NCBI RefSeq assembly: GCF_050920415.1
Contig: NZ_CP169309.1
Origin: Escherichia coli
Lineage (GTDB): Bacteria > Pseudomonadota > Gammaproteobacteria > Enterobacterales > Enterobacteriaceae
Direction: 5' to 3' (one strand)
DNA length: 64,000 nt
The notes below the pieces were generated by a model. The model ran no database searches. It was not told the origin of the DNA and worked only from the letters and a program-made list of their open reading frames with translations. A program made the translations under genes and the position numbers. Positions 1 to 23,544 of this stretch are shown here, one piece after another; position 1 is the stretch's first letter, and every line of letters starts with the position of its first letter.

Positions 1-41
1 TCGACGGCGGCTTAAGTATGCCGCGCTTCTGAGGCTGAATC

Positions 42-884: not shown

Positions 885-893
885 GGAATGATC

Positions 894-1670: not shown

Positions 1671-1679
1671 GGAAATTGT

Positions 1680-3221: not shown

Positions 3222-5299
3222 GTCAGCTTGATGACACCCTCCTTGATGCGCTGACGCACGTCACTTTCCCGAAGGGTTTTGTGTCAGCAGAGCCAGCGTC
3301 AATTGTCACGGTTGAAGATGTCGATTACCCGATCTGGCAAGTTGATGCGCTAGTCGTTGGTAGCGGCGCGGCAGGGCTGCGCGCAGCGGTTGAACTTAAG
3401 CGCCGCCAGCAAAATGTGCTGATCGCCACCGCCGGGTTATATATGGGGACATCGGCATGTTCTGGTTCCGATAAACAGACGCTGTTTACCGCCGCTACCG
3501 CGGGCAACGGCGATAACTTCGCTAAACTGGCGGAAGCACTGGCGAGCGGTGGGGCGATGGATCACGACACCGCTTATGTCGAAGCGGTAGGTTCTCTGCA
3601 CACTCTTGGCGGGTTGCAATATCTTGGTCTGGAATTACCGGAAGATCGCTATGGCGCAATTCTTCGTTATCAAACCGACCATGACGAAGCCGGGCGAGCA
3701 ACCTCGTGTGGGCCGCGTACTTCTCGCCTAATGGTGAAAGTATTGCTGGAGGAAGTGCAGCGTCTTGCCATACCACTACTGACCAGTGCAACGGTGATTA
3801 AGCTCCTGCATCAGCACGGAGAGAATGGCGAAGATCGCGTTGCGGGGGCTATTCTCGCAACCGGTTCCCGCGCCTATAACCCTTGGGGGCTGGCTATTGT
3901 GACGGCGCCCAATGTGGTACTGGCAACGGGCGGACCGGGCGAGCTTTATCGCGACAGTGTTTATCCACATAAATGCTTCGGCTCGCTGGGGCTGGCGCTG
4001 GAAGAAGGTCTGACGCTAACCAATCTGACCGAAAGCCAGTTTGGTATAGGCACGCCGCGCAGCACGTTTCCGTGGAATTTGTCCGGCACCTATGTACAGG
4101 TGATCCCATATATCTATTCCGTGGATGCCGGGGGCAACGAGTATAACTTCCTCGCAGATTACTATCGCACCACCCAGGAGCTGGCTTCAAACATCTTCCG
4201 TAAAGGCTATCAGTGGCCGTTTCACGCCACACGAGTGATGGATTTTGGCTCCAGCTTGTTAGATATGGCAGTAGCGCAAGAGCAGCAATCAGGGCGTCAG
4301 GTATTTATGGATTTCAATCGCAATCCTGAACCTGTGCCGGGTGACCTGCCGTTCTCATTAGATCGACTGGACGACGACGTTCGCGCGTATCTGGAAAATA
4401 ACGACGCTCTGGCACCATCGCCCATCGAACGACTGCAACGAATGAATCCGCTGTCTATCTCGCTGTATAAGATGCACGGTTACGATCTCACCACGCAGCC
4501 ATTGCAGTTTGCCATGAATAATCAGCATATGAATGGCGGCATTGAAGTGGATATCTGGGGGCAAACCTCCCTGTCCGGCTGTTTCGCCGTGGGGGAAGTT
4601 GCTGGCACACACGGCGTCACTCGCCCTGGTGGTGCGGCATTGAATGCCGGGCAGGTTTTTGCTGTTCGTCTGGCACGTTTTATTGGTTGCACGCAAAAGC
4701 GGTCCGTTGAGGATGATGTCGCGCAGCTAGTAGCCTCACCTCTGCATACAATCAGAGAAGTTATCGCTCAGGCACTGGCAAACGAGAACGGAATGACGCT
4801 GGCAACGGTAAAAGAAAAAATCCAGGCGCGAATGTCTGATTACGCGGGATTTATTTGCCATGCTGATAAAGTTCGTCACGCCGCCCGTGACGCCATGCTG
4901 TTAAATGAATTTGCGCAGCAACATGGTCTAACTATCAACCACGCCGGTGAAATTGCCGAGCTATTTATGTGGCGGCATATGGCATTAACATCCGCTGCGG
5001 TGTTAAGCCAGCTATCACATTATATTGATGCTGGCGGTGGTAGTCGTGGAGCGCGGATGATTATTGATCCACAAGGAGAATATCTTCCACAAACTCGTCG
5101 CGGCGCAATCGAAGATTGGCGTTTTCGCTCTGAACAAGCTGAAGATAAAAATCACAGACTAACTCTCTCCTTTTCACAAGGTTTATTTATTAATGAAATT
5201 AAGTTCTTGAGAAACTTACCGCATATTAAAGGTATTTACTTTGAGAAGAATTGGCCTGATTTTCTTAACGGAACAATTTATCAGACACGGCATGAATAA
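3218..5299 (+). CDS. FAD-dependent oxidoreductase, fumarate-reductase/succinate-dehydrogenase flavoprotein-like fold, 693 aa
   Basis: Start overlaps the upstream stop (ATGA) with GGAGGA RBS. Dinucleotide-binding motif VVGSGAAGLRAAVEL near the N-terminus and an ATGGPGELY segment typical of FAD-binding-2 enzymes. No signal peptide; the last ~250 aa are not recognisable. Confidence 0.62.
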   Translation: MSQLDDTLLDALTHVTFPKGFVSAEPASIVTVEDVDYPIWQVDALVVGSGAAGLRAAVELKRRQQNVLIATAGLYMGTSACSGSDKQTLFTAATAGNGDNFAKLAEALASGGAMDHDTAYVEAVGSLHTLGGLQYLGLELPEDRYGAILRYQTDHDEAGRATSCGPRTSRLMVKVLLEEVQRLAIPLLTSATVIKLLHQHGENGEDRVAGAILATGSRAYNPWGLAIVTAPNVVLATGGPGELYRDSVYPHKCFGSLGLALEEGLTLTNLTESQFGIGTPRSTFPWNLSGTYVQVIPYIYSVDAGGNEYNFLADYYRTTQELASNIFRKGYQWPFHATRVMDFGSSLLDMAVAQEQQSGRQVFMDFNRNPEPVPGDLPFSLDRLDDDVRAYLENNDALAPSPIERLQRMNPLSISLYKMHGYDLTTQPLQFAMNNQHMNGGIEVDIWGQTSLSGCFAVGEVAGTHGVTRPGGAALNAGQVFAVRLARFIGCTQKRSVEDDVAQLVASPLHTIREVIAQALANENGMTLATVKEKIQARMSDYAGFICHADKVRHAARDAMLLNEFAQQHGLTINHAGEIAELFMWRHMALTSAAVLSQLSHYIDAGGGSRGARMIIDPQGEYLPQTRRGAIEDWRFRSEQAEDKNHRLTLSFSQGLFINEIKFLRNLPHIKGIYFEKNWPDFLNGTIYQTRHE

Positions 5300-5319
5300 T
5301 ATTGCAAAGGTTAATCACT

Positions 5320-5796
5320 ATGCGAAATATAATCAGATCTATTAATTCATTGCTTTCCACATTGAACATTACCATTTTGGCAATTATTGTGATGTGCGTT
5401 ACATGGCAAGTAGTAGCACGATTTATCTTTAAAAGCCCCAGCATTTTTACAGATGAACTTAGTCGTTTACTATTTATTTGTCTTGGACTTTTTGGTGGTG
5501 CTTATACTGCCGGACAAAACCGACATCTGGCCATTGATCTTCTGCCAATGATGCTAAAAGGAAAATCCCGACGTTATTTATTCTTATGTATTCAGGCCAT
5601 TGTTATTCTTTTTGCCTCTATCATTATGGTTTATGGTGGCGGGTTATTAACACTGGACACATTTGATTCAGGGCAAACTTCTCCGGCTTTAGGCTGGCAG
5701 ATGGGATATATTTACATGAGCATTCCAATAAGTGGCATCCTTATTATTATATACACCATAGATACAGTTTTAACCGAACTTAAACAACCACTCTAA
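5320..5796 (+). CDS. TRAP transporter small permease (DctQ-like), about 158 aa
   Basis: Small hydrophobic multi-TM protein immediately upstream of DctM-like and DctP-like genes. ATG at 5320 with AAAGG 9 nt upstream is preferred over the TTG at 5302. AT-rich coding sequence. Confidence 0.6.
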   Translation: MRNIIRSINSLLSTLNITILAIIVMCVTWQVVARFIFKSPSIFTDELSRLLFICLGLFGGAYTAGQNRHLAIDLLPMMLKGKSRRYLFLCIQAIVILFASIIMVYGGGLLTLDTFDSGQTSPALGWQMGYIYMSIPISGILIIIYTIDTVLTELKQPL

Positions 5797-5818
5797 AATA
5801 AGTAGGGATGGAGAAAAC

Positions 5819-7120
5819 ATGGATTACTGGTTACCGATCATTGTGTTATTTGGTGCTTTCTTTTTTATGTTGGCATTAGGTGTTCCTATTGTCTATGCTA
5901 TTGGTTTATCAACACTGGCATCAATTACTACACAACTCGATTTCAACTCAGCGTTAAGTGTGGTTTCCCAAAAGTTAGCCTCCGGGTTAGATAGTTTTAC
6001 GTTGTTGGCAATCCCATTTTTTATTTTGTCTGGCAACATTATGAATCACGGAGGAATAGCGCGACGATTAATCAACTTTGCCCGAATTCTCGGCGGTCGT
6101 CTGCCAGGCTCACTTGCCCACTGTAATATTCTTGCCAATATGCTGTTCGGGGCAATTTCTGGTTCAGCCGTGGCTTCGGCGGCTGCGATGGGCGGCGTCA
6201 TGCATCCGCAACAGGTTAAAGAGGGCTACGACCCGGCATTCAGTACTGCAGTTAACGTTGCCTCTGCCCCGACGGGTTTGCTTATTCCACCCAGTAATAC
6301 GTTAATCGTCTATTCACTGGTCAGTGGTGGTACTTCTATTGCCGCACTGTTCCTGGCAGGATATGTCCCGGGAATTTTATTGGGCCTGGCGCTGATGACT
6401 GTGGCTGGTATTATCGCGGTACGCCGGGGTTATCCAAAACCAGAACGTCCGACTTTGCGCCAGGCTGGAGTGGCAATATGGATGGCGATCCCCAGTATTT
6501 TCCTGATTGTATTAATTATGGGTGGTGTACTAAGCGGTATTTTTACCCCGACAGAAGCATCTGCAATTGCGGTAATTTATACCCTTTTCCTTGCACTGGT
6601 TCTTTATCGTGAAATATCAGTTAAAGATTTACCTAAGATATTTCTGGAGTCCGTCATTACCACTGCAATTGTCTTGTTGTTAATTGGTTCTTCAATGGGA
6701 ATGTCATGGGCAATGTCAAACGCTGACGTTCCCTTCCTGATTCTCGATTTGCTTAACACTATTTCTGACAATCCAATAATCATCCTGCTTATTATCAATA
6801 TTATCCTGTTGATTATCGGCACATTTATGGATATGACACCGGCAGTACTGATTTTTACGCCGATATTTTTACCCGTTGTCACCGAACTGGGTATGGACCC
6901 GATTCACTTTGGTATTGTCATGGTACTGAACATGTGTATCGGTATTTGTACTCCGCCTGTAGGCAGTGTGTTATTTGTCGGTTGTAGTGTATCTAAATTA
7001 CCGATTAATAAAATTATCAAACCTATGCTGCCATTCTATGCCGTGATGGTATTGGTGCTGGCAATGGTTACCTATATTCCGCAAATCAGTATGGCATTGC
7101 CAAGAGCACTGGGCTACTGA
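5819..7120 (+). CDS. TRAP transporter large permease (DctM-like), 433 aa
   Basis: 433-aa polytopic membrane protein with the size and hydrophobicity pattern of DctM-family permeases. GGATGGAG RBS; positioned between Q-like and P-like genes. Confidence 0.7.
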   Translation: MDYWLPIIVLFGAFFFMLALGVPIVYAIGLSTLASITTQLDFNSALSVVSQKLASGLDSFTLLAIPFFILSGNIMNHGGIARRLINFARILGGRLPGSLAHCNILANMLFGAISGSAVASAAAMGGVMHPQQVKEGYDPAFSTAVNVASAPTGLLIPPSNTLIVYSLVSGGTSIAALFLAGYVPGILLGLALMTVAGIIAVRRGYPKPERPTLRQAGVAIWMAIPSIFLIVLIMGGVLSGIFTPTEASAIAVIYTLFLALVLYREISVKDLPKIFLESVITTAIVLLLIGSSMGMSWAMSNADVPFLILDLLNTISDNPIIILLIINIILLIIGTFMDMTPAVLIFTPIFLPVVTELGMDPIHFGIVMVLNMCIGICTPPVGSVLFVGCSVSKLPINKIIKPMLPFYAVMVLVLAMVTYIPQISMALPRALGY

Positions 7121-7172
7121 TATGCATTAACTGGCGGCACCTGCCGCCATATTTATTAGAAAAGGAACATCT

Positions 7173-8144
7173 ATGAAAATAAAAGTATCCGCTGGCATTA
7201 TCGGTGCTGTTCTTATGCTATCCGCAAGCCAGTCCTGGGCAGTAACATTAAAACTTAGCCATAATCAGGATAAATCTCATCCTGTTCATAAAGCGATGGA
7301 GTTCTTTGCGAAAAAGAGCAAAGAGTACTCTAACGGTGATATTACTATTCGTATTTATCCAAATGGAACATTGGGTACTCAACGAGAAACAATGGAGCTG
7401 ATTCGTTCTGGTGCTATTCCGCTGGTAAAAACCAATGCGGCGGAGATGGAAGCCTTCGAGAGTTCGTATAAAATATTTAGCCTGCCTTATTTGTTCCGCG
7501 ATCGTGATCATTATTATCAGGTCATGCAAGGCGATATCGGAAGGAAAATCCTCGACTCAACGAAAAGCAAAGGTTATTTCGGGCTGACTTTCTATGATGG
7601 AGGCGCCCGCAGTTTCTACGGTAATAAACCGGTACTGAAACCAGACGATCTGAAAGGCATGAAAGTCCGTGTCCAGCCAAGTCCTGGCGCAGTTGAAATG
7701 ATCAAAGTCATGGGCGGTAACCCGACGCCACTGGATTACGGCGAGCTGTATACGGCCTTACAGCAGGGCGTGGTCGATATGGCAGAAAACAGCGTGATGG
7801 CACTGACCACTATGCGTCACGGTGAAGTGGCAAAATCCTTTAGCCTTGATGAGCACACCATGGTGCCCGATGTGGTTCTGATGAGTAATGCTGCATTTGA
7901 TAAACTCAGCCCTGAAAATCAGGCAGTTATATTAAAAGCAGCGAAAGAATCGATGAGTTACATGAAGGAGTTATGGAGCGAGCAAGAGAAACAAGAATTT
8001 GCAAAACTGGATAAAATGGGCGTAAAAGTCTACCCGGTTGATAAAGCACCGTTTATCGAGAAAGTACAACCGATGTACGCAAACTTCGCTAAAGATAACC
8101 CTGCCCTTGCCCCAATGCTGGCTGATATTCAGGCGGCTAAGTAA
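7173..8144 (+). CDS. TRAP transporter periplasmic substrate-binding protein (DctP-like), 323 aa
   Basis: N-terminal signal peptide (MKIKVSAGIIGAVLMLSASQSWA), size typical of DctP-family binding proteins, AAAGGA RBS. Last gene of the operon, convergent with rplI. Confidence 0.7.
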   Translation: MKIKVSAGIIGAVLMLSASQSWAVTLKLSHNQDKSHPVHKAMEFFAKKSKEYSNGDITIRIYPNGTLGTQRETMELIRSGAIPLVKTNAAEMEAFESSYKIFSLPYLFRDRDHYYQVMQGDIGRKILDSTKSKGYFGLTFYDGGARSFYGNKPVLKPDDLKGMKVRVQPSPGAVEMIKVMGGNPTPLDYGELYTALQQGVVDMAENSVMALTTMRHGEVAKSFSLDEHTMVPDVVLMSNAAFDKLSPENQAVILKAAKESMSYMKELWSEQEKQEFAKLDKMGVKVYPVDKAPFIEKVQPMYANFAKDNPALAPMLADIQAAK

Positions 8145-9299: not shown

Positions 9300-9713
<414 letters not shown>

Positions 9714-10022
9714 TTATTCAGCCTCCTGTCTGGGTCAGCCGAATCCCGGGGAGGCAAGGAACGTGTTAAAGGTCGGCTGAAAAATGACGCGTTATAGTAC
9801 TGACATACCCCGTTAAACTCAAGGCCAGCCGACAAATAAATCTCATCTTTCACCAAATCGTACTAACACGCTGATTTGAAGTTCATCACACTTCATCATG
9901 GTGTTTTTTTGAACAACTGCATCAGAAATGGTCACCATCAACTTCTTTATCATTGATTAAAATTAAATCAGAAGATCACCACAAGAGGAGAGCACACAAA
10001 GTCAGCCGTCGAGGAGGTATCT

Positions 10023-10298
10023 ATGTTCAGCCGTGTTTTAGCCCTTCTGGCTGTGCTTTTGCTAAGTGCAAATACATGGGCAGCCATTGAAATTAATAAC
10101 CACCAGGCCAGAAATATGGACGATGTGCAAAGCTTAGGCGTGATTTATATCAATCATAATTTCGCCACTGAAAGCGAAGCGCGTCAGGCATTAAATGAAG
10201 AGACAAATGCGCAGGGCGCAACGTACTACCACGTGATTCTGATGCGGGAACCGGGGAGTAACGGCAACATGCACGCCAGCGCGGATATTTATCGCTAG
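10023..10298 (+). CDS. yjfY: DUF1471-family small secreted protein YjfY
   Basis: 91-aa ORF with signal peptide (MFSRVLALLAVLLLSANTWA); GAGGAGG RBS; K-12 position between rpsF and ulaF. Confidence 0.9.
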   Translation: MFSRVLALLAVLLLSANTWAAIEINNHQARNMDDVQSLGVIYINHNFATESEARQALNEETNAQGATYYHVILMREPGSNGNMHASADIYR

Positions 10299-10338
10299 CA
10301 CCAGGTATAACCAACGAAACATTGCCATAGTTTGCTTT

Positions 10339-10363
10339 GCCCCCTTCTCAGGGGGCTTTTTTT
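10339..10363 (+). terminator. rho-independent terminator of yjfY
   Basis: Stem GCCCCC/GGGGGC (10339-10344 and 10351-10356) with a 6-nt loop, followed by TTTTTTT at 10357-10363. Confidence 0.8.
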
Positions 10364-10426
10364 GAAAAACGGCTGCGGACTTAGACCAGTTATCTCCCGA
10401 AGAAGGAAATTTCCGCAGCGCGTGTT

Positions 10427-11113
10427 TTACTTCTGCCCGTAATAGGCGTTAGGACCGTGCTTACGCATGAAGTGTTTATTCATGAGATAGCTGTCGATGT
10501 GATTCAGTTGTGGGTTAATGCCGCGGGCAATCCACGCCATTTTCGCCACTTCTTCCATCACCACCGCGTTATGCACCGCATCGTGAGCATCTTTCCCCCA
10601 GGCGAACGGCCCGTGCTGATACACCACAATTCCCGGCGTATGCAGCGGCTCGGCGTCACCCAGCGTTTCGATAATCACTTTGCCTGTGTTTAGCTCGTAT
10701 TCCCCCTGCACTTCTTCTTCACTTAACCCACGCGTACACGGGATATCGCCAAAGAAGTAGTCAGCATGCGTGGTGCCTAATGCCGGGATCGCCAGCCCCG
10801 CTTGCGCCCATGCGGTGGCATGCGTGGAATGGGTATGGACAATGCCGCCAAGCGACGGATAACGACGGTAGAGTTCAAGATGCGTCGCAGTGTCGGAAGA
10901 CGGACGATACTCCCCTTCCACCACCTTGCCGCTAATATCAACCACCACCATATCGTCTGCTTTCATGGTTTCGTAGGCGACACCGCTGGGCTTGATCACC
11001 ACCAGCCCGCGTTCGCGGTCAATGGCGCTGACGTTACCCCAGGTAAAGGTCACCAGCCCGTAACGCGGCAGATCCATGTTGGCTTCAAATACCTGCTGTT
11101 TCAGCTTTTGCAT
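10427..11113 (-). CDS. ulaF: L-ribulose-5-phosphate 4-epimerase UlaF
   Basis: 228-aa translation [36 protein letters not shown]...; last gene of the ulaABCDEF operon. Confidence 0.95.
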
Positions 11114-11967
11114 TATGCCGCCTCCACCATGCCTGCTTTAGCCATGCGCGCTTTCACCCAATCACGCGCTTTCGCCACTTCTGCCGCCGGGTCTTCCGCC
11201 GTTTCGCTCCACATCTCAATCAGGTACGGCCCGCAATAGCCACTCTGTTTGAGCGTTTCAAAGCAACGTTCGAAATCCACCACACCCTCGCCAAACGGCA
11301 CGTTTTTGAAGACGCCTGGTTTAGTGTCTTTCACATGCACCGCGACGATATGCCCGATTCCGGCCTGCAATTCCATCTGCACGTCGTTGTCCCACGCCGA
11401 CAAGTTGCCGATATCCGGGTAGAGCTGGAACCACGGGTTGTTAAGATAGTGCGCGTAACCCAGCGCCTTGCTGATGGAGTTCATCAACGGGTAATCCATG
11501 ATCTCCATTGCCAGCGTCACCTGCGCGCGGCTCGCCATCTCAACGCTCTCTTTCAGGCCGTCACGGAAACGACGACGCGTTTCGTTATTGGCTTCCTGAT
11601 AGTAAACGTCGTAGCCCGCCAGTTGGATCACGCGAATACCGACATCCTGGGCGAACTGGATAGCTTTTCGCATAATCTCAAGCCCCTGCGCCCGCACTGC
11701 GTCATCTTCGCTGCCCAGCGGGAAACGACGATGAGCAGAAAGGCACATGGATGGTACGCGCACGCCGGTTTCAACAATCGCGTTCACCAGCGCCAGACGC
11801 TGCTCGCGGCTCCAGTCAAGGCGCGAGAGGCGATCGTCCGTTTCATCTACCGACATCTCGACAAAATCGAAGCCTAACGTTTTTGCCAGTTGCAGCCGTT
11901 CCAGCCAGCACTCCCCGGCGGGGAGCGCTTTTTCGTAGATGCCAAGCGGGATTTGTTTGGACAACAT
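11113..11967 (-). CDS. ulaE: L-ribulose-5-phosphate 3-epimerase UlaE
   Basis: 284-aa translation [44 protein letters not shown]...; stop shares one nucleotide with the ulaF start. Confidence 0.95.
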
Positions 11968-11976
11968 ATCCGCTCC

Positions 11977-12627
11977 TTAGCCCCACAGTTCGGCGATGGA
12001 ACGTTTGAACTGACGCGCGGCTTCAACCGGAGAGGCGGCATCACGGATACTACGCCCAGCGATAAACACATGAATCGGAATGCCTTTGAACAGCGGCAGG
12101 TCTTCCAGCGCCAGGCCACCGGTGACGGTGACTTTGAAGCCCATATCGGAAAGACGTTTGATCGCGGTGATATCCGCTTCGCCCCACGCCACGCCTGCGG
12201 CCTGCGCGTCACGGCTGCGGTGATAAACCACCTGCTGGATACCTGCGTCGCGCCACTGCTGCGCCTGTTCCCAGGTCCAGTAACCGGTCAGTTCGATCTG
12301 CACGTCGCCATTAAACTCTTTTGCCACGTCCAGCGCGCCTTTGGCGGTGTTGATATCTGCACAGCAAATTACGGTCACCCAGTCAGCGTTGGCTTCAAAG
12401 CACATACGAGAAAGGATTTTTCCGGCATCGGCGATTTTGGCGTCTGCCAGCACGATTTTGTGCGGATAAAGCGCTTTCAGATCGCGAACCGCACGCACAC
12501 CTTCGCCCACGCACAGAATGGTGCCCACTTCGATAATGTCGACTTCTTCGGCAATCAGGCGAGTAGTTTCGTAGGCGCTAGCCATAGTCTGGTTGTCCAG
12601 CGCGACTTGCAACATCGGTAATGACAT
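11977..12627 (-). CDS. ulaD: 3-keto-L-gulonate-6-phosphate decarboxylase UlaD
   Basis: 216-aa product starting [13 protein letters not shown]... at the ATG at 12627 (AAGGAA RBS); the longer ORF-track start at 12780 has no RBS support. Confidence 0.93.
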
Positions 12628-12640
12628 TTTCAATTCCTTC

Positions 12641-13105
12641 TTAAGCAGCCGCGTTGGTGCGGTCAATGAGATCCAGGATTTCCTGCTCGGTACGGCAGGC
12701 GCGTAAACGGTCGAAATTCTCTTCATCTTCAAACAGGTTGACGATCTGCATGATGCCCACTTCCTGATGCGTGTTGGCATCGACCGCCGCCATCGTGATG
12801 AGGATATCCACCGGGTCGTTATCTTCGTGGTTGAACTCCAGCGGCTTTTTCAGCGTCACCAGCGCAAAACCGGTTTTCTTAACGCCCTCTTCCGGGCGAC
12901 CATGCGGCATTGCCAGGCCCGGTGCGAGCACAAAGTACGGACCGTGCTGTTCAACCGCATCCAGAATCGCCTGGTAGTAACGCGGCTCTACCACATCTGC
13001 CGCCACCAGCAGGTCAACGCCGATTTTCACTGCGTCCTGCCATGTCTCAGCTTCAGCCTGCAGACGGATAGATTTATTCTCCGCCAGCGAATCACGTAAT
13101 TTCAT
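12641..13105 (-). CDS. ulaC: ascorbate-specific PTS EIIA component UlaC
   Basis: 154-aa translation [29 protein letters not shown]... Confidence 0.94.
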
Positions 13106-13114
13106 AGGGCGCCC

Positions 13115-13420
13115 TTACTTCACGTCCTGCGGGAAATGTTCTTTGATCACTTCCAGCAGTTTCGGGCCAAAGTCAGCAGGAGAGAGCATGTTGCGCACGC
13201 CAACGACATATTTGTTGCCGGTCACGGTGATCTCGCCCGCGATGTGCGTAGAAGCGATGATGATATCCGCGCCGCTCAACTCGCTTTTGTATTCACCAAC
13301 CGCGCAGCTGTTTACCGTATGGTCGATGTTCGACTGGGTTAAAAACTGGTCCACTTTCATTTTCATGATCATGGAACTGCCTTGTCCGTTACCACACACA
13401 GCCAGAATACGTACGGTCAT
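13115..13420 (-). CDS. ulaB: ascorbate-specific PTS EIIB component UlaB
   Basis: 101-aa product starting [16 protein letters not shown]... at the ATG at 13420 with AAGGAG RBS. Confidence 0.93.
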
Positions 13421-13435
13421 AATCAAAACTCCTTA

Positions 13436-15187
<1,752 letters not shown>

Positions 15188-16252
15188 ATGAGTAAAGTGA
15201 AAAGTATCACCCGTGAATCCTGGATCCTGAGCACTTTCCCGGAGTGGGGTAGCTGGCTGAATGAAGAAATTGAACAAGAACAGGTAGCTCCTGGCACATT
15301 CGCGATGTGGTGGCTAGGCTGTACCGGGATCTGGCTGAAATCTGAAGGTGGCACCAACGTTTGCGTCGATTTCTGGTGTGGTACTGGCAAACAAAGTCAC
15401 GGTAACCCACTAATGAAACAGGGTCACCAGATGCAGCGCATGGCTGGCGTGAAAAAACTGCAACCGAACCTGCGTACCACCCCATTTGTTCTTGATCCGT
15501 TTGCGATTCGCCAGATCGACGCGGTACTGGCAACTCACGATCACAACGATCATATCGACGTCAACGTCGCTGCTGCCGTGATGCAGAACTGCGCTGATGA
15601 CGTGCCATTTATCGGGCCGAAAACCTGCGTGGATTTGTGGATTGGCTGGGGTGTGCCGAAAGAACGTTGCATCGTGGTCAAACCGGGCGATGTCGTTAAA
15701 GTGAAAGACATTGAAATTCATGCCCTTGACGCGTTTGACCGTACTGCACTGATCACTTTGCCTGCCGATCAAAAAGCGGCTGGCGTACTGCCAGACGGCA
15801 TGGACGATCGCGCGGTAAACTACCTGTTCAAAACGCCGGGCGGTACCCTGTATCACAGTGGCGATTCCCACTACTCTAACTACTATGCGAAGCACGGTAA
15901 CGAGCATCAGATCGACGTGGCATTAGGTTCATACGGTGAAAACCCACGTGGTATCACCGACAAAATGACCAGTGCTGATATCCTGCGTATGGCAGAAGCG
16001 CTGAATACAAAAGTGGTTATCCCGTTCCACCATGATATCTGGTCAAACTTCCAGGCCGATCCGCAAGAGATCCGCGTACTGTGGGAGATGAAAAAAGATC
16101 GCCTGAAGTATGGCTTCAAGCCGTTTATCTGGCAGGTCGGTGGCAAATTTACCTGGCCGCTGGATAAAGACAACTTCGAGTACCACTATCCACGCGGTTT
16201 TGACGATTGCTTCACCATTGAACCGGATCTGCCGTTCAAGTCGTTCCTGTAA
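15188..16252 (+). CDS. ulaG: L-ascorbate-6-phosphate lactonase UlaG (metallo-beta-lactamase fold)
   Basis: 354-aa product [23 protein letters not shown]... with HDHNDH metal-binding motif; start taken at the ATG at 15188 (AAGG 9 nt upstream) rather than 15182. Confidence 0.94.
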
Positions 16253-16265
16253 TCTGTCGTTTATA

Positions 16266-16297
16266 CCGGATGGCGTGGAGAAGTTCGCGCTATCCGG
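16266..16297. repeat. REP-like hairpin between ulaG and ulaR
   Basis: Imperfect inverted repeat CCGGATGGCG ... CGCTATCCGG resembling a REP palindromic unit. Confidence 0.35.
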
Positions 16298-16359
16298 CGT
16301 AGTATTTCCTGGCTATTTCAAATATCATCTAAAAAAATCAAATTTTATCGGAATAGCTC

Positions 16360-17115
16360 ATGACTGAAGCACAAAGACATCAAATTCTCCTGGAAATGCT
16401 CGCACAATTGGGCTTTGTGACCGTTGAGAAAGTCGTTGAGCGTCTGGGAATTTCGCCTGCTACCGCTCGACGCGATATCAATAAACTTGACGAAAGCGGC
16501 AAACTGAAAAAAGTGCGCAATGGCGCAGAAGCCATTACCCAGCAGCGCCCACGCTGGACGCCGATGAATCTGCATCAGGCGCAGAACCATGATGAAAAAG
16601 TACGTATCGCTAAAGCAGCCTCGCAGCTGGTTAATCCGGGCGAAAGCGTCGTCATCAACTGCGGTTCCACCGCGTTTCTGCTTGGGCGGGAAATGTGTGG
16701 CAAGCCAGTGCAAATCATTACTAATTATCTACCGCTGGCGAATTACCTGATCGATCAGGAGCATGACAGCGTGATTATCATGGGCGGCCAATACAACAAA
16801 AGCCAGTCCATCACCTTAAGTCCACAGGGCAGCGAAAACAGTCTCTATGCCGGGCACTGGATGTTTACCAGCGGCAAAGGACTGACCGCAGAAGGGTTGT
16901 ATAAAACCGATATGCTGACGGCAATGGCAGAGCAGAAGATGTTGAGCGTGGTAGGGAAACTGGTGGTACTGGTTGATAGCAGTAAGATCGGCGAACGTGC
17001 GGGGATGCTCTTTAGTCGTTCAGATCAAATCGATATGCTGATCACCGGCAAAAATGCTAACCCGGAAATCCTGCAACAACTGGAAGCGCAAGGGGTCAGC
17101 ATTCTGCGTGTTTAA
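16360..17115 (+). CDS. ulaR: DeoR-family transcriptional repressor UlaR
   Basis: 251-aa translation [49 protein letters not shown]... with an N-terminal HTH. Confidence 0.95.
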
Positions 17116-17861
17116 AGATGCTGGCGGAAAAATGTCACGGCGGTCTCTAACGCCTCGGGCGTAATGCGGTGACGCACGCCTGGCTGCCATGAACAGGTTA
17201 GCTGTTTATCCCGTCCCACCTCGCTTAAGGCCTGCTGCAAACGTAGTGATTCGTCGGCGGGGACGACATCATCGTCAAGGCCATGCCATAAGAGCAGAGG
17301 TCTGTTTCCCAACTCTTCCAGGTGGTTTGTCGCTTCCCACTCTGCCAGTGGCGCGATAATGTTATTAAATTCGTTCTGCTGTCCTGTCGTTTCAGATATC
17401 AGCGGTGGAAACAGTGAACGGGCGAGTGATGTAAAATAGCCCGATCCCATCATGCTGGCGGTACATTTCACCGTGGGGTAGCGAGCGGTAATTCCCAGAG
17501 CCGTCATCGCGCCCATCGATGCACCACCGATTGCCAGACGGTCATCAAGCAGCCAGTTTTCTTCAGCTACTGCCGCACGTAAAGTAATGAATTCCTGCAT
17601 ACTTTGTAGCAAGATTTGCCAAAATTGATTTAACCGCCGCGCTGCGTCGCCCCTAAAACGGCTACCGTGATCGGGCGCATCCGGCATGATCACCCGCAAA
17701 CCAGCCTGCGCCAGCGCAACGGCAAAATAGCTATACACCAGACTGGACGAAGTAAAGCCGTGATAAAAAATCACGCACGGTAACGGGGTATCTTTTTGCC
17801 CGACAGGATAAGCATGAAGAACGGGAATATCTGCCAGCACGCGCGAGTCTATTTCAATCAT
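17112..17861 (-). CDS. yjfP: alpha/beta-hydrolase esterase YjfP
   Basis: 249-aa translation [39 protein letters not shown]...; 3' end overlaps ulaR by 4 nt, convergent. Confidence 0.92.
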
Positions 17862-18042
17862 CTGTCTCTCCTTTTTGTCTGGTATGACATGAAGAAATCC
17901 TTAGCACAAGTTTCTGCTGGCGGTATTAGTTCATAATGTTGAGATGTGGGTTACGCTTTCATCACGTTTTCATTCGAAAATCGCGTACCAGGTAACAATT
18001 CGGGAACATTCCCCCAAAGTTAAATTAATAAGGCACTACACT

Positions 18043-18372
18043 ATGGTTAGCAGGAAACGTAATAGCGTTATTTACCGGTTTGCCAGTTTATTATTGGTGT
18101 TGATGTTAAGTGCCTGTAGCGCACTGCAAGGTACGCCACAGCCAGCACCGCCAGTAACGGACCATCCGCAAGAGATTCGCCGCGACCAGACGCAAGGGTT
18201 ACAGCGAATAGGTAGCGTAAGCACGATGGTTCGGGGTTCTCCGGATGACGCATTAGCAGAAATCAGAGCGAAAGCTGTCGCTGCAAAAGCTGATTATTAC
18301 GTTGTCGTCATGGTGGACGAAACCATCGTGACAGGACAGTGGTATTCACAAGCCATTTTGTACCGTAAATAA
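18043..18372 (+). CDS. bsmA: biofilm stress and motility lipoprotein BsmA (YjfO), DUF1471 family
   Basis: 109-aa product MVSRKRNSVIYRFASLLLVLMLSACSALQG... with a lipobox (LSAC); start at the ATG at 18043 rather than the ORF-track 17944. Confidence 0.9.
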   Translation: MVSRKRNSVIYRFASLLLVLMLSACSALQGTPQPAPPVTDHPQEIRRDQTQGLQRIGSVSTMVRGSPDDALAEIRAKAVAAKADYYVVVMVDETIVTGQWYSQAILYRK

Positions 18373-18520
18373 ATCAGACAACTTACATAGTCAGCTTTAC
18401 ATTGCTTTGCGTCCCTATGCGTTTACCTGTGCACAATAAATTACCAGCTGGAAGCTCGGGCGTTTATTACCGCGATGGAATGCCCTGCAACATGTGGGGA
18501 AACGAAAAATGGAGCTGACG

Positions 18521-18796
18521 ATGAAACAATTACTTGCCTCACCCTCGCTGCAATTAGTGACTTATCCTGCGAGCACCACGGCACAGTCTGCAGAATTCGC
18601 CAGTGCTGACTGCGTAACGGGCCTGAATGAAATAGGTCAGATCTCGGTTAGCAATATTTCAGGGGATCCGCAGGACGTGGAACGTATCGTGGCGTTAAAG
18701 GCCGATGAACAAGGTGCATCATGGTACCGCATTATTACCATGTACGAAGACCAGCAGCCTGATAACTGGCGCGTACAGGCGATCCTGTATGCGTGA
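18521..18796 (+). CDS. yjfN: DUF1471-family protein YjfN
   Basis: 91-aa product MKQLLASPSLQLVTYPASTTAQSAEFASADCVTG... with GGAG 6 nt upstream of the ATG at 18521. Confidence 0.9.
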   Translation: MKQLLASPSLQLVTYPASTTAQSAEFASADCVTGLNEIGQISVSNISGDPQDVERIVALKADEQGASWYRIITMYEDQQPDNWRVQAILYA

Positions 18797-18821
18797 GTGT
18801 CATCTACAGCAAATGAACAAT

Positions 18822-18852
18822 GCCGGATGCGGCACCTGTGCCTTATCCGGCC
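18822..18852. repeat. REP element
   Basis: GCCGGATGCGGCACCTGTGCCTTATCCGGCC matches the canonical E. coli REP palindromic unit; lies between yjfN and aidB. Confidence 0.75.
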
Positions 18853-18945
18853 AACAGTTCCTGAAATTTCATTGTGTTAGTTGATAACACGTAATGCTGC
18901 TGTTGCCATTATAAGACGCGCTAGCATCACATCTGGCTGACTCGT

Positions 18946-20571
18946 TTATAAACATACTCCCCCCGTCGCCCGCAGCAATAAATCATTCTGGATCTGCTCT
19001 GACAACCGCACGCCGCCGCGCGTATCAAACATCATCTGACACCACGCCTGCGCCATTGGCGGAGAGGCATATTTCAACATTTGCGCGCCGCAACCCAGCA
19101 GGAATAGCTGACGAGTAATCTCTCGCCCCATTTCTTCAGCTGGCTTACGCAGTTGCTGCTGCAAACGACGAACCGCGCGATCAAAATAGCGATCCTGTCC
19201 TTTCACTTCCACAAATGCTTCTGTCAGCAAATCGTATACCCCAGCCTGCTTATTGAGAACGCGCAGCACATCGAGGCACATAATATTGCCAGAACCTTCC
19301 CAGATGCTGTTCACTGGCATTTCCCGATAAAGTCGCGGTAGTTCGCTCTCTTCGCAATAGCCAATACCGCCCAGCACCTCCATCGCTTCAGCCACAAACG
19401 GAATGCCACGTTTGCAGATAACAAATTTCGCCGCAGGCGTAAATAAGCGCGCCCACAGGGCTTCTTTGGCATCGGCACGCCGATCCCACGCTCGCGCAAG
19501 ACGAAACAGCAACGCTGTTTGCCCTTCAAGTTGGAGCGCCATGCGGCTTAAGACATGACGCATCAAAGGCTGTTGGATCAATGGATTACCAAAAACATGG
19601 CGTTGATGGGCATGATAAATCGCCAGCGAAAATGCACGGCGCATCATGGCATGGCTACCCAGGGCGCAATCAAAACGCGTCATCCCACCCATTTTCAGGA
19701 TCAGACGAACTCCTTCCCCTTCCTGCCCCAACAACCAGCCAATGGCATCCTGAAACTCCACTTCGCAGCTGGCGTTAGAGCGATTACCCAGCTTATCTTT
19801 CAGCCGCTCGAGGCGAATCGCGTTGCGTTGCCCGTCAGGCAAAAAGCGCGGCACAAAAAAGCAGGACAAACCGCCCGTAGTCTGCGCCAGCACCAGATGC
19901 GCATCGCTTTGCGGCACCGAGAAAAACCATTTATGCCCCACCAGCCGATAAGAGCCATCGTCCAGACGCTCTGCGCGGGTAGTGTTGCTCATCACATCGG
20001 AACCGCCCTGCTTTTCCGTCATGCCCATGCCAATCAACAAACCGCGTTTTTGCCCACCTGGCAATAAGTGGGAATCGTAGCGATCGCTCAACAGCGGCGT
20101 GGTCCAGTCCTGAAACGGCGCGGGTAACATCTGTAACAGCAATGGCGTGGCGGCAAAGGTCATGGTTATCGGACATAACGACCCTGCCTCAACCTGTGCG
20201 TGCAACATAAAACGCGCCGCGCGCGCCACAAATGCGCCGGAGCGAGCGTCTTCTTCCCAGGCAAGATTGTGCACCCGATTGGTACATAGCGCCTGCATCA
20301 GCAAGTGCCAGGCGGGGTGAAAACGCACATCGTCCAGACGGCGTCCTTGCGCATCGTAGCGCAATAATTCAGGCGGATTCACATTCGCCAGCCGCCCCAG
20401 TTCAAGAGATTCAGCCGTTCCTAACTGCTGACCAATACTGGCGAGAAAATCGCTATCCCAGCCAGCACCTTCACGCGTTACCGCTTCGCAGAGCGCGCCA
20501 TCAGACAGGTATAAGTTGCTGTTATTTAATGGTATAGGTTGATTAAAAACGGTGTGAGTTTGCCAGTGCAC
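18946..20571 (-). CDS. aidB: adaptive-response protein AidB (acyl-CoA dehydrogenase family)
   Basis: 541-aa product starting (GTG) MHWQTHTVFNQPIPLNNSNLYLSDGAL...; GTG at 20571 with GGAGGGAG RBS 7 nt upstream; the ORF-track TTG/ATG extension is rejected. Confidence 0.93.
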   Translation of the reverse strand: MHWQTHTVFNQPIPLNNSNLYLSDGALCEAVTREGAGWDSDFLASIGQQLGTAESLELGRLANVNPPELLRYDAQGRRLDDVRFHPAWHLLMQALCTNRVHNLAWEEDARSGAFVARAARFMLHAQVEAGSLCPITMTFAATPLLLQMLPAPFQDWTTPLLSDRYDSHLLPGGQKRGLLIGMGMTEKQGGSDVMSNTTRAERLDDGSYRLVGHKWFFSVPQSDAHLVLAQTTGGLSCFFVPRFLPDGQRNAIRLERLKDKLGNRSNASCEVEFQDAIGWLLGQEGEGVRLILKMGGMTRFDCALGSHAMMRRAFSLAIYHAHQRHVFGNPLIQQPLMRHVLSRMALQLEGQTALLFRLARAWDRRADAKEALWARLFTPAAKFVICKRGIPFVAEAMEVLGGIGYCEESELPRLYREMPVNSIWEGSGNIMCLDVLRVLNKQAGVYDLLTEAFVEVKGQDRYFDRAVRRLQQQLRKPAEEMGREITRQLFLLGCGAQMLKYASPPMAQAWCQMMFDTRGGVRLSEQIQNDLLLRATGGVCL

Positions 20572-20588
20572 TGTGTCTCCCTCCATCA

Positions 20589-20620
20589 ATGGCAGTCACC
20601 CTTAGTATGGTCACTGCCAT
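20589..20620 (-). promoter_or_regulatory. 12-bp near-perfect inverted repeat in the aidB upstream region
   Basis: ATGGCAGTCACC (20589-20600) and GGTCACTGCCAT (20609-20620) form an 11/12 inverted repeat with an 8-bp spacer, about 20-50 nt upstream of the aidB start. Candidate operator or 5'-UTR hairpin. Confidence 0.4.
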
Positions 20621-20654
20621 GGATTCCTGACAGAAAGAGATTGCTAAAACATTC

Positions 20655-21818
20655 TTACCCAGCAATGTAATGCGGAACGAAACGTGAGGTGTCTTTGGTG
20701 ATCAGCGTGTTATCTTCACGGATTCCCATTCCGCACGCTTCATCATCGACAATCCAGCTACCGATGAGTGTGTAGCTATCGCCAAATCGCGGCAGAGGTT
20801 GAAACGCCTGATAGATCATCGGTTCATCGGCGTAATCACCCTCAGCGTGGTCAACGACGTTATTCTGACCGTCGAAAATGGTGACGTTTCCGCCTTCGCG
20901 TGAGTAGATCGGTTTACGCACATAGCTTTCGCCAGCGGCAATCTGCGGTTTTTCGCCATCAAACCAGGATGCAAGTAGGTTAGGATGACCAGGAAAGAAG
21001 CGCCAAAGCAGCGGCATTAACCCTTTGTTGCTCAAGATACTTTTCCATAACGGCTCCACCCATTGCTCGCGGCGCTTGCGCAGCAGAGGACCGTTATCGT
21101 CACGCATCATCCATTCCAGCGGATACAGCTTAAATGCACGCTGGATGACATTATCATCAAGATCGGTCAGTACACCGCCGACGCCCAAACCGAGATCTTC
21201 AATGTAGATAAACCGTGACTCCTGCCCAGCCTGCTGAGCGCAGTCCTGCAAGTACAGCACAGTACTCCTGTCTTCGTCGGTATCCTGACAACAGCAGAAA
21301 TAAAACGGTTCCCGACTGTAAAGCTCGCTAAAACGCGAAATCAGGCGTTCCTGAATGGCATTGTACTGATCGGCATCACGCGGAATAATGCCGCTACGCC
21401 GCGCATCTTCCAGCCACAGCCACTGGAAATAAGCCGATTCATACAACGAGGTTGGCGTATCGGCGTTGTACTCCAGCAGCTTCACCGGCGCATTGCCACA
21501 CCAGGCAAAATCCATCCGACCATACAGCGAAGGATCGCGTGCGCGCCAGCTTTCAGCGATCACATCCCAGTACAGCGGGGGGATCGCCAGTTGCGTCAGG
21601 ATTTCTTCGTCTTGAACCGCACGATCCACCACCTCAAGGCACATCTGATGCAGTTCCGCAGTTGGTTTTTCGATCTGCTCTTCTATCTGACGCAGAGTAA
21701 AGCGGTAAGCCCGACTCTCATCCCAATAGATTTCATTGTCGATGATATGAAAGTCGAAACCGTTGTCGGCGGCGATCTGGTCCAGATCCCGTCGTACAGG
21801 AACGTTGTGTCTCAGCAT
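20655..21818 (-). CDS. yjfC: glutathionylspermidine-synthase-like ATP-grasp protein YjfC
   Basis: 387-aa translation MLRHNVPVRRDLDQIAADNGFDFHIIDNEIYWDESRAYRF...; last gene of the yjfI-yjfC operon. Confidence 0.92.
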   Translation of the reverse strand: MLRHNVPVRRDLDQIAADNGFDFHIIDNEIYWDESRAYRFTLRQIEEQIEKPTAELHQMCLEVVDRAVQDEEILTQLAIPPLYWDVIAESWRARDPSLYGRMDFAWCGNAPVKLLEYNADTPTSLYESAYFQWLWLEDARRSGIIPRDADQYNAIQERLISRFSELYSREPFYFCCCQDTDEDRSTVLYLQDCAQQAGQESRFIYIEDLGLGVGGVLTDLDDNVIQRAFKLYPLEWMMRDDNGPLLRKRREQWVEPLWKSILSNKGLMPLLWRFFPGHPNLLASWFDGEKPQIAAGESYVRKPIYSREGGNVTIFDGQNNVVDHAEGDYADEPMIYQAFQPLPRFGDSYTLIGSWIVDDEACGMGIREDNTLITKDTSRFVPHYIAG

Positions 21819-22884: not shown

Positions 22885-23544
22885 TTAACCAATAATATGA
22901 AGTGATGTCAGTGGGATATCAACACCCAGTGCGCGCGAAAATAACCACTCCGGCTCGCCGAGATCGTTAAAAGATTCCTCACCATTTAACAGCAAATATT
23001 CACAGGTATCTTCGGTCACCTGCCGTTCATAGCCCATGGTAAAATTATGCACTTCCCATTTGGCGTGGTTTTGATTTTCAACTTTTTCCAGCATATAGAC
23101 GGGTTCGATATTCCCCGGTTCTTCGCTGTTAAAAAATCGCTGCCAGCGTTTTTCCTGCCAGTTTAATGTCATTGCCCCCATCGCTTTGGCGTTGATCGCT
23201 TCGCGCCAGTGGCTCTCTTTGCTGATACCGTAGCTCTCTTCATAGACAAAGAGCTTTATATCATCAATGTCATCAATATCTTCGCCGCCGGTGGTATTGA
23301 TTTGCAGAAATTCATCGCCCGAAGTGTAGTAGCGGAAAATCTGACTACCGCCGCCCAGATCGATGTGGCTGACAGCGGCTACCGTAAATTCTTCACCCGG
23401 CAGCGCAATCAGCAATTCATCTTCCAGCAAACGAAACGCTAACGTGTCGAGCGTAAAGCCGCTATTGAGATGAAGTCCCAGCGGGCCACGTGCGGTTACA
23501 GGTTTATCATCCTTACCAAACAGACGCTTGAAAAAACTTGTCAT
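22885..23544 (-). CDS. yjfK: DUF2491-family protein YjfK
   Basis: 219-aa translation MTSFFKRLFGKDDKPVTARGPLGLHLNSGF...; start ATG overlaps the stop of the upstream channel-like gene (ATGA) with GAGGGAAG RBS. Confidence 0.9.
   Translation of the reverse strand: MTSFFKRLFGKDDKPVTARGPLGLHLNSGFTLDTLAFRLLEDELLIALPGEEFTVAAVSHIDLGGGSQIFRYYTSGDEFLQINTTGGEDIDDIDDIKLFVYEESYGISKESHWREAINAKAMGAMTLNWQEKRWQRFFNSEEPGNIEPVYMLEKVENQNHAKWEVHNFTMGYERQVTEDTCEYLLLNGEESFNDLGEPEWLFSRALGVDIPLTSLHIIG

Follow-up and report, generated by a model that had tools for sequence, protein, structure and literature searches.

bsmA and yjfN as a probable ancient tandem pair, with yjfY as a separate neighbour, in a conserved DUF1471 cluster of Escherichia coli

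This work concerns a 64,000-nucleotide stretch of Escherichia coli DNA (contig NZ_CP169309.1 of assembly GCF_050920415.1; below, the window) and three of its genes, yjfY, bsmA (also called yjfO) and yjfN, which encode small proteins of the DUF1471 family with predicted export signals. We propose, with moderate confidence, that bsmA and yjfN stem from an ancient in-place tandem duplication and that yjfY is a separate member of the family. An earlier note made from the sequence, the original prediction, had described the three genes as scattered through the ula/aidB neighbourhood and had taken this as consistent with local duplication. The evolutionary reading is here corrected to one probable ancient tandem pair with a separate neighbour, not a three-fold local expansion. 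The locus offers a testable route to the origin of the DegP-activating C-terminus of YjfN and of its Cpx-type control. The three genes are as follows.

10023..10298, plus strand: yjfY, a 91-amino-acid DUF1471 protein with a classical Sec signal peptide (RefSeq; Pfam 69.4 bits; hydropathy 3.44)
18043..18372, plus strand: bsmA (yjfO), a 109-amino-acid lipoprotein with a signal helix, the lipobox LSAC, a Pro-rich linker and a DUF1471 domain (RefSeq; Pfam; NCBIfam)
18521..18796, plus strand: yjfN, a 91-amino-acid DUF1471 protein, predicted to be soluble, with a weakly hydrophobic export signal and the C-terminus ...AILYA (RefSeq; Pfam 63.3 bits)

Evidence for a proposed tandem pair and a separate neighbour

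All three proteins match Pfam PF07338 (YdgH_BhsA-like, the former DUF1471; YhcN family) far above its gathering score of 27 bits, at 69.4 bits for YjfY, 56.9 for BsmA and 63.3 for YjfN, and each covers the full 55-position model at its C-terminus. Together with the RefSeq annotation, these matches bear out the presence of three small (91-109 amino acids) DUF1471 proteins within about 9 kb. BLASTP aligns BsmA and YjfN at 30% identity (E 4e-8) and YjfY and BsmA at 27% (E 6e-5, the alignment lying partly over the signal peptides). It returned no alignment between YjfY and YjfN, whose homology was recovered with profiles only. When profiles were made from the orthologs of 80 related genomes, hhalign gave probabilities of 97.8% for BsmA-YjfN, 95.2% for YjfY-YjfN and 86.6% for YjfY-BsmA, so that similarity is detectable by profile in all three pairs. 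The homology of the trio stands despite the BLASTP miss, because the proteins have a Pfam profile in common and are connected by hhalign.

The relationship between BsmA and YjfN is the closer one. The BsmA ortholog profile has YjfN as its best paralog, at 32.7 bits, and the next paralog reaches 19.8. We also built subfamily-level neighbour-joining trees on a family-wide sample, one with Kimura distances and one with BLOSUM-score distances and distant members. BsmA and YjfN were sisters in 60% of bootstraps in the former and in 71% in the latter, where YhcN and YjfN were sisters in 2%. For these two genes, local duplication agrees with the best-paralog profile, with the 60-71% bootstrap values and with the position that the pair has kept between yjfP and aidB.

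The same explanation did not hold up for yjfY. The YjfY profile scores SrfN at 21.6 bits, YdgH domain 1 at 20.5, YhcN at 16.6, YjfN at 14.5 and BsmA at 10.7, and NCBI's independent models agree with the ortholog-profile picture of nearest paralogs. YjfY grouped with SrfN in 52% of bootstraps of the BLOSUM-score tree; a clade of BsmA, YjfN and YjfY appeared in 11% of the Kimura and 9% of the BLOSUM-score bootstraps. YjfY is thus no closer to BsmA or YjfN than to SrfN, YdgH or YhcN.

Gene order was compared in a synteny sample of 80 loci, with BsmA as the anchor and one genome per species. The common order is rplI-rpsR-priB-rpsF pointing left, yjfY pointing right, the ula block (ulaFEDCBA pointing left, ulaG and ulaR pointing right), yjfP pointing left, bsmA and yjfN pointing right, and aidB pointing left. 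It was found in Escherichia, Salmonella, Citrobacter, Enterobacter, Klebsiella, Raoultella and Kluyvera, and likewise in Lelliottia, Leclercia, Trabulsiella, Buttiauxella, Pluralibacter and Franconibacter. Orthologs of each of the three genes, 55-99% identical, occupy the same position throughout the sampled Enterobacteriaceae. In 79 of the 80 loci, as well as in the distant loci L091 and L099, yjfN directly follows bsmA; both lie on the plus strand, with a spacer of 148 bp. Given the conservation of this arrangement and the identities of 27-30%, any duplication must be ancient.

10427..17115, both strands: ula regulon (ulaFEDCBA, ulaG, ulaR), a facultative block of about 7 kb between yjfY and yjfP-bsmA-yjfN (annotation)
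17112..17861, minus strand: yjfP, an esterase gene and the constant, divergent left neighbour of bsmA (annotation; kept in Enterobacteriaceae and in distant loci)

Presence of the ula regulon was scored in the 69 loci in which both yjfY and yjfP are visible, and it is absent from 16 of them (L029, L033, L039, L047, L053, L054, L056, L066, L073, L075, L077, L078, L081, L082, L083 and L086), sometimes varying inside one genus (Buttiauxella, Kluyvera, Citrobacter, Enterobacter). In 14 of these 16, yjfY and yjfP converge with 69-174 bp between them, usually including the yjfY terminator, and the trio spans 2.0-2.2 kb with only yjfP intervening. Remnants of ulaR (its last 17-24 codons) persist in L086 (E 3e-8) and L033 (E 8e-5), which indicates that the regulon was lost there by secondary deletion. 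The spread over 9 kb in E. coli is therefore due to the intervening ula regulon and not to dispersal of the paralogs, and the description of the genes as scattered is misleading: they form a compact cluster split by a facultative block.

More distant loci (L091-L099), whose AidB is 64-71% identical to that of E. coli, show two states of the slot between yjfP and aidB. In L093-L097 it is occupied by one bsmA-type lipoprotein gene alone. L091 and L099 have a bsmA-type gene there and, after it, a 91-amino-acid yjfN-like gene, the product of which has a normal signal peptide and the Y-R end typical of the family. No yjfY is present between rpsF and yjfP in L093. A 69-amino-acid open reading frame (ORF) at the yjfY position of L096 was considered and rejected, as it does not encode a DUF1471 protein. 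The distant proteins bridge the two subfamilies: the YjfN profile gives the BsmA-like ones 34-48 bits, which equals or exceeds the 34.1 bits of E. coli YhcN, and the yjfN-like ones score 32-42 bits on the BsmA profile. Together with the tree, these bridging proteins are the best evidence for what would be an in-place tandem duplication.

Proposed history and alternatives

The history that we propose for the pair would start with a bsmA-type lipoprotein gene between yjfP and aidB, which would have been copied in tandem well before the Enterobacteriaceae radiated; the direction of copying is inferred. The downstream copy, yjfN, would then have lost the lipobox and the Pro-rich tether to give a soluble periplasmic protein. 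Within the Enterobacteriaceae, the end of YjfN may have changed from Y-R to Y-A or Y-V, and the gene would have acquired, or kept, an envelope-stress promoter of its own, of the Cpx type. As for yjfY, it would be a distinct member whose closest relatives are SrfN and YdgH and whose place is between rpsF and yjfP; a local origin for it is unsupported, though conceivable.

It is tempting to extend this history, although only tentatively, to a small 'birth site' in the yjfP-aidB spacer with stepwise neofunctionalisation, from BsmA only, through the addition of a soluble YjfN-like protein with a normal signal peptide and a Y-R end, to YjfN ending in Y-A or Y-V and finally to the polar signal of Escherichia YjfN. 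The Y-A/V end would then be a ligand of the DegP PDZ domain, in combination with a Cpx-type promoter and a structured leader, and the polar signal might slow or tune export. If this were true, a switch of one C-terminal residue would have made a generic envelope domain into a protease activator, and the Y-R homologs of distant taxa should not activate DegP.

Several observations weigh against the tandem-pair history or against parts of it. The YjfN profile scores YhcN (34.1 bits) above BsmA (28.6 bits); so does BLASTP of YjfN with the E. coli sequences alone (40 versus 33 bits), and the NCBIfam models give YjfN 51.6 bits for YhcN versus 50.4 for BsmA. The trees are by neighbour joining only and rest on about 67 alignable columns at 20-35% identity, so that support of 60-71% is not decisive. 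The one-copy state in distant taxa could equally reflect loss of yjfN. The inter-alanine segment of 20 residues that is common to the trio (see below) makes it conceivable that yjfY and its neighbours have a common ancestry. On the regulatory side, a search of the window for the CpxR consensus gave 5 matches where 2.95 are expected; since the box at 18396-18410 is not significant there by itself, Cpx control of yjfN through it is something that we infer. In addition, yjfN is not classified as a direct CpxR target in the iModulon study (PMC7657598), and simple sigma-70 scans found no promoter 5' of yjfY, bsmA or yjfN. Finally, the action of YjfN on DegP and DegQ through its hydrophobic C-terminal residue (cited in PMC12096828) and the published bsmA knockout phenotypes, in biofilm formation and peroxide stress, come from second-hand citations.

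On the view of the original prediction, all three genes would stem from serial local duplications. In that case yjfY would be an older local copy that has drifted furthest. We consider this unlikely. Ten family genes were located in E. coli K-12 (yahO, rclB, ybiJ, mcbA, bhsA, ydgH, yhcN, yjfN, bsmA and yjfY), and in simulations on a 5.22-Mb genome three of ten randomly placed loci fell inside 8774 bp with P of about 0.001, so that the clustering of the trio is real and beyond chance. Serial duplication would account for this clustering, for the single strand on which the three genes lie, for the 2.0-2.2 kb that they occupy, with yjfP alone between them, where ula is missing, and for the hhalign probability of 95.2% between YjfY and YjfN. 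It would also fit the segment between two invariant alanines, which is 20 residues long in YjfY, BsmA, YjfN and mostly in the three YdgH domains, versus 17 in six subfamilies (YahO, YbiJ, McbA, BhsA, YhcN and RclB). By this segment the trio is one structural class, but ydgH, which is encoded elsewhere in the genome, belongs to it too. Moreover, the nearest relatives of YjfY are SrfN, YdgH domain 1 and YhcN and not BsmA or YjfN, a clade of the trio is found in a mere 9-11% of bootstraps, and distant loci with bsmA, or with bsmA and a yjfN-like gene, lack yjfY between rpsF and yjfP.

Less probable still, and quite doubtful in our view, is that no local duplication took place and that the genes arrived independently by transposition or transfer, their co-location being due to chance or to a permissive region beside the rpsF operon. 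The region does take cassettes (ula; an MCP gene in L096; about 2 kb of inserted DNA in the yjfN-aidB spacer of Enterobacter), pairwise identities are 27-30% or undetectable, and E. coli YjfN is marginally nearer to YhcN than to BsmA. Chance, however, is at odds with the simulated P, and independent arrival with the head-to-tail adjacency and the 148-bp spacer in 79 of 80 loci, with the sister relationship of BsmA and YjfN in 60-71% of bootstraps versus 2% for YhcN and YjfN, and with the distant homologs whose scores connect the two subfamilies. Other DUF1471 neighbours are closest paralogs as well: ybiJ and mcbA, separated by 3.9 kb in K-12, are mutual best paralogs (60 bits), which suggests that local duplication is the usual mode of the family, as argued in PMC4092069. 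A recent duplication or gene conversion within E. coli, which has nothing but the proximity of the genes in its favour, can be dismissed in view of protein identities of at most 30%, of same-position orthologs (55-99% identity) across the sampled Enterobacteriaceae and of the presence of each gene in at least 5417 of 5426 E. coli genomes.

Gene identity and distribution

RefSeq places yjfY, bsmA and yjfN on the plus strand, with products of 91, 109 and 91 amino acids, and the interval 10023-18796 runs exactly from the start of yjfY to the stop of yjfN. Each protein is one residue off its K-12 counterpart; BsmA is identical at 108 of 109 positions, and YjfN differs at a signal-peptide residue (A18T). 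BsmA scores 152.7 bits against the NCBIfam equivalog NF011433, the curated cut-off of which is 100, and the RefSeq product name of yjfN is 'DUF1471 family protease activator YjfN'. The 10-kb segment with the trio matches, at 100% identity, the chromosome of E. coli strain MFDS1022581 (NZ_CP169399.1) and is present in 5425 of 5426 complete E. coli genomes, in which the three genes are core genes.

Clustering of 1.84 billion proteins at 50% identity leaves only 505 clusters for the whole DUF1471 family, and nearly all named loci that harbour it belong to the Enterobacteriaceae; a lone record titled Chryseobacterium has enterobacterial flanks. The trio belong to this family, DUF1471 (YhcN/BhsA), of small envelope proteins with an alpha+beta fold, which is restricted to Enterobacterales. 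The family, its paralog count and the yjfN/yjfO adjacency were already published in 2014, and the observation of the trio is a correct reading of known annotation. Its description as a stress-response family agrees with the literature, in which YjfN has a specific role as a DegP activator. No solved structure was found for YjfY, BsmA or YjfN.

The Chryseobacterium-titled record (L049, Chryseobacterium sp. 18061) contains a typical enterobacterial rplI-yjfY-ula-yjfP-bsmA-yjfN-aidB locus, almost the same as in 'Citrobacter sp. 18056', which comes from the same study. The assembly is probably mislabelled or contaminated.

Export signals and C-termini

The three proteins differ in how they are predicted to be exported, and the original prediction was right about two of them: the signal peptide of YjfY is classical and BsmA carries a lipobox, but the signal of YjfN is not 'plain' in Escherichia. 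Hydropathy maxima below are the best values over 9 residues, and a slash marks the cleavage point.

10011..10017, plus strand: Shine-Dalgarno sequence GAGGAGG, 5 nt 5' of the yjfY ATG (read from the sequence)
18106-18117, plus strand: codons of the BsmA lipobox LSAC, residues 22-25 (lipobox in 77/77 orthologs)
18511..18514, plus strand: Shine-Dalgarno sequence GGAG of yjfN (sequence; cross-genus conservation)

YjfY begins with the signal peptide MFSRVLALLAVLLLSANTWA/A, for which cleavage is predicted after TWA (residue 20) and which has a hydropathy maximum of 3.44; the protein is predicted to be exported. Its C-terminus is of the YRK or YR type, as in BsmA and unlike YjfN. In the description of the family, YjfY is still uncharacterised (PMC4092069).

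The export region of BsmA consists of a positively charged N-terminus and a hydrophobic helix, followed by the lipobox L-S-A-C. We scored lipoboxes with the pattern [LVI][ASTVI][GAS]C after a hydrophobic h-region, and the pattern is also present in every distant BsmA-like protein examined (P0134, P0130, P0058, P0099, P0093 and P0142). Lipoproteins without Asp at position +2 undergo Lol-dependent sorting to the outer membrane. As position +2 of BsmA is Ser (Thr or Gln in few orthologs), outer-membrane sorting is expected by this rule, and the prediction for BsmA is a lipoprotein tethered to the outer membrane, the sorting step being the part deduced from the rule. An AlphaFold (AF2) model of BsmA has a mean predicted local distance difference test (pLDDT) score of 88, rising above 95 over the domain, and comprises a signal helix (residues 4-28), an extended Pro-rich linker and an alpha+beta domain (residues 42-108). 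The fold comparison, run on BsmA alone among the trio, returned 2m2j, 4evu, 2ma8, 2jna and 2ma4 as the top Foldseek matches, with target-normalised template-modelling (TM) scores of up to 0.79; the best solved relatives are YdgH domains I and III, SrfN, RcsF and YahO. The protein ends in Y-R-K. In the family description, BsmA is said to influence biofilm formation under stress (PMC4092069).

A longer bsmA ORF starting at 17944 was rejected, its 5' extension not being conserved as coding sequence. In the type strain of E. albertii, NBRC 107761 (L017 8002-8331), codons 43 and 99 of bsmA are in-frame stops; the gene is probably a pseudogene in this strain, and the adjoining yjfN is intact.

Escherichia YjfN starts with MKQLLASPSLQLVTYPASTTA/QS, whose hydropathy maximum is 1.19, compared with 2.0-3.4 for the other nine E. 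coli paralogs and a median of 2.06 for YjfN orthologs. Within this signal peptide (residues 1-21, 18521-18583), the h-region contains Pro, Gln, Ser and Tyr. Despite this weak h-region, an A-x-A-type cleavage site (TTA/Q) is retained, and in most other genera the signal peptide looks normal (MKRSLALTSLLLSAGLVSTTA/QS). The polar signal is common to the Escherichia species sampled (E. coli, E. albertii, E. whittamii and two further Escherichia sp.), with 1-2 substitutions, and is thus a genus-conserved trait, not a strain defect. Following it, the mature N-terminus QSAEFASADCVTGLNEIG is almost invariant, and YjfN is predicted to be an exported, soluble periplasmic protein. The C-terminus is Y-A or Y-V in 68 of 69 Enterobacteriaceae orthologs. 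Kim 2018, as cited in PMC12096828, attributes activation of DegP to the hydrophobic C-terminal residue (Ala) of YjfN, which is itself consumed and has been called a 'suicide activator'; this published determinant is present in the YjfN of the window. Binding to DegP, its activation and cleavage by it are reported for the K-12 protein. CsgA breakdown by DegP and DegQ in vitro required YjfN (bioRxiv 10.1101/2024.12.25.630354).

The yjfN start codon at 18521 is preceded, at 6 nt, by a GGAG that stays GGAG where the overlapping upstream in-frame ATG is absent (Salmonella, Buttiauxella). A longer yjfN ORF from the GTG at 18494 was rejected because its 5' part is not conserved as coding sequence.

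Regulatory and non-coding elements

Candidate regulatory elements suggest that the three genes differ in regulation: yjfN has a Cpx-like box, bsmA a block of its own, and yjfY its own strong ribosome-binding site, CRP site and terminator. The elements are listed below.

9875..9890, minus strand: CRP site TGTGATGAACTTCAAA, rpsF-yjfY intergenic, 133-148 bp 5' of the yjfY ATG (exact match to a published site)
10339..10363, plus strand: yjfY intrinsic terminator, GCCCCC-loop-GGGGGC followed by a T run (terminator scan; same hairpin in ula-less loci)
17925..18042, plus strand: conserved non-coding block 5' of bsmA (alignment of 20 genera; indels not multiples of three)
17967-17980, plus strand: inverted repeat TTTTC-ATTC-GAAAA in the bsmA upstream block (20-genus alignment)
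18002-18013, plus strand: inverted repeat GGGAACATTCCC in the bsmA upstream block (20-genus alignment)
18396..18410, minus strand: CpxR-box-like motif GCAAAGCAATGTAAA in the bsmA-yjfN spacer, one mismatch to GTAAA-N5-GTAAA (pattern search)
18432..18437, plus strand: conserved -10-like hexamer CACAAT of a putative yjfN promoter (alignment)
18438..18509, plus strand: two putative yjfN-leader hairpins, about 18438-18465 and 18483-18499, flanking the conserved GCGATGGA at 18472-18479 (per-sequence folding)
18815..18852, strand not assigned: REP-like palindrome between the convergent yjfN and aidB (sub-threshold Rfam naRNA4 on both strands; terminator-like hairpin)

The CRP site 5' of yjfY is the one listed for yjfY/rpsF by chromatin immunoprecipitation sequencing (ChIP-seq) of CRP in enterotoxigenic E. 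coli (ETEC) H10407 (PMC4287617), and the yjfY terminator hairpin stays beside yjfP in ula-less relatives. The same divergent rpsF-yjfY region includes the RpsF leader (Rfam RF02893, 110 bits; 9693-9777, minus strand). The intergenic stretch is 90% identical to K-12, and its flanking ribosomal genes are 99-100% identical.

The bsmA upstream block shows very strong conservation. Directly before the bsmA ATG stands CTACACT, and no conserved Shine-Dalgarno sequence was seen there across the 20 genera. An RcsB-type box (GGA-N4-TCC) and sigma-E and sigma-32 promoters were considered for the bsmA block and dropped, as flanks and spacing fit poorly; a literature search for Rcs control of bsmA yielded nothing useful.

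The bsmA-yjfN spacer contains the nearly invariant TTTACAYTGCTTTGC at the CpxR-box-like motif (18396-18410) across 20 genera, and yjfN, not bsmA, is in the CpxR iModulon (PMC7657598). Each stem of the leader hairpins varies in sequence between genera yet still pairs; when 58 and 48 unique orthologous segments were folded, the median z-scores were -1.7 and -1.5. RNAalifold, applied to the yjfN leader as aligned with MAFFT, yielded practically no consensus structure (-0.07 kcal/mol), and a claim of covariation would be weak because the hairpins appear only when sequences are folded singly between the conserved anchors. They may form a structured leader of yjfN or an element at the bsmA 3' end. 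A terminator scan detected no intrinsic terminator in the bsmA-yjfN spacer, so that read-through from bsmA into yjfN is possible; we claim neither an operon nor its absence. A permissive Rfam scan detected no family in the non-coding regions of bsmA or yjfN, its only matches being the known RpsF leader and weak REP/naRNA4-like ones.

Perfect GTAAA-N5-GTAAA matches occur elsewhere in the window, at 45257-45271, 5' of the phosphatidylserine decarboxylase gene (annotated asd; psd in K-12) and mscM, and at 59694-59708, in the efp/ecnA region. The published CpxR regulon includes psd as well as mscM. Downstream of yjfN, the spacer to aidB (18797-18945) has an indel relative to K-12, and in Enterobacter, Lelliottia and Leclercia it contains an extra insert of about 2 kb.

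Surrounding window

At positions 1-8144, an accessory cluster lies beside rplI, where K-12 has yjfZ/ytfA. Its genes encode a sugar-phosphate isomerase, an enoyl-CoA hydratase, a CoA transferase, an FAD oxidoreductase and a tripartite ATP-independent periplasmic (TRAP) transporter made up of a small permease, a large permease and a substrate-binding protein. Inside the yjfIJKLMC cluster, a 356-amino-acid gene of the potassium-channel family (23541-24611, minus strand) lies between yjfK and yjfJ, which are separated by only a 50-bp spacer in K-12. Over ula, yjfP, aidB and yjfC (9756-21800), DNA identity to K-12 is about 95%, with some 250-bp windows at 90%. In comparison, bsmA-yjfN is 98-100% and the ribosomal genes are 99-100% identical to K-12, and the YjfP protein of the window is 88-91% identical to other Escherichia YjfP. 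The divergence of 9756-21800 may reflect a divergent lineage or a recombined segment.

Comparison with known systems

Eletsky et al. 2014 described the DUF1471 family, with about twelve subfamilies, ten E. coli paralogs, its fold and its resemblance to RcsF, and cited the yjfN/yjfO adjacency as consistent with expansion by gene duplication (PMC4092069). The YjfY, YjfO/BsmA and YjfN subfamilies of that study are those found here, with proteins of about 90 amino acids, a predicted N-terminal export signal, the alpha+beta fold and a restriction to Enterobacterales. Our analysis goes beyond it in identifying the ula regulon as what separates yjfY from the pair, the one- and two-copy states of the yjfP-aidB slot, the 20- versus 17-residue classes and the grouping of YjfY with SrfN.

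Two other neighbouring pairs provide a comparison for bsmA-yjfN. In E. coli, ybiJ and mcbA are likewise family neighbours a few kb apart and mutual best paralogs, and a yhcN-ycfR-like neighbouring pair is known in Salmonella (PMC4092069). Unlike these, bsmA and yjfN lie directly head to tail with a 148-bp spacer, are more diverged (33 bits), and differ from each other in targeting (lipoprotein versus soluble) and in C-terminus.

Like BsmA, the stress-sensing outer-membrane lipoprotein RcsF has a lipobox, a Pro-rich disordered linker and a small alpha+beta domain of the same fold, and the BsmA model matches the RcsF structures 2l8y and 2y1b at target-normalised TM scores of 0.57-0.66; the fold similarity between DUF1471 proteins and RcsF is published (PMC4092069, PMC12096828). 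The two differ in that their identity is about 15-17% and that the sole cysteine of mature BsmA is the lipidated one, redox-active disulfides being described for RcsF in the literature; nor is BsmA known to thread through porins or to signal to IgaA. By this model-based comparison, RcsF is a structural analogue of BsmA and not a member of its family.

CpxP, a Cpx-induced adaptor for DegP, resembles YjfN as a small periplasmic, Cpx-associated protein that modulates DegP proteolysis. When the two were tested side by side in vitro, YjfN, not CpxP, enabled CsgA to be broken down by DegP and DegQ (bioRxiv 10.1101/2024.12.25.630354). The fold of CpxP is unrelated to that of YjfN, which, according to the literature, works via its hydrophobic C-terminal alanine.

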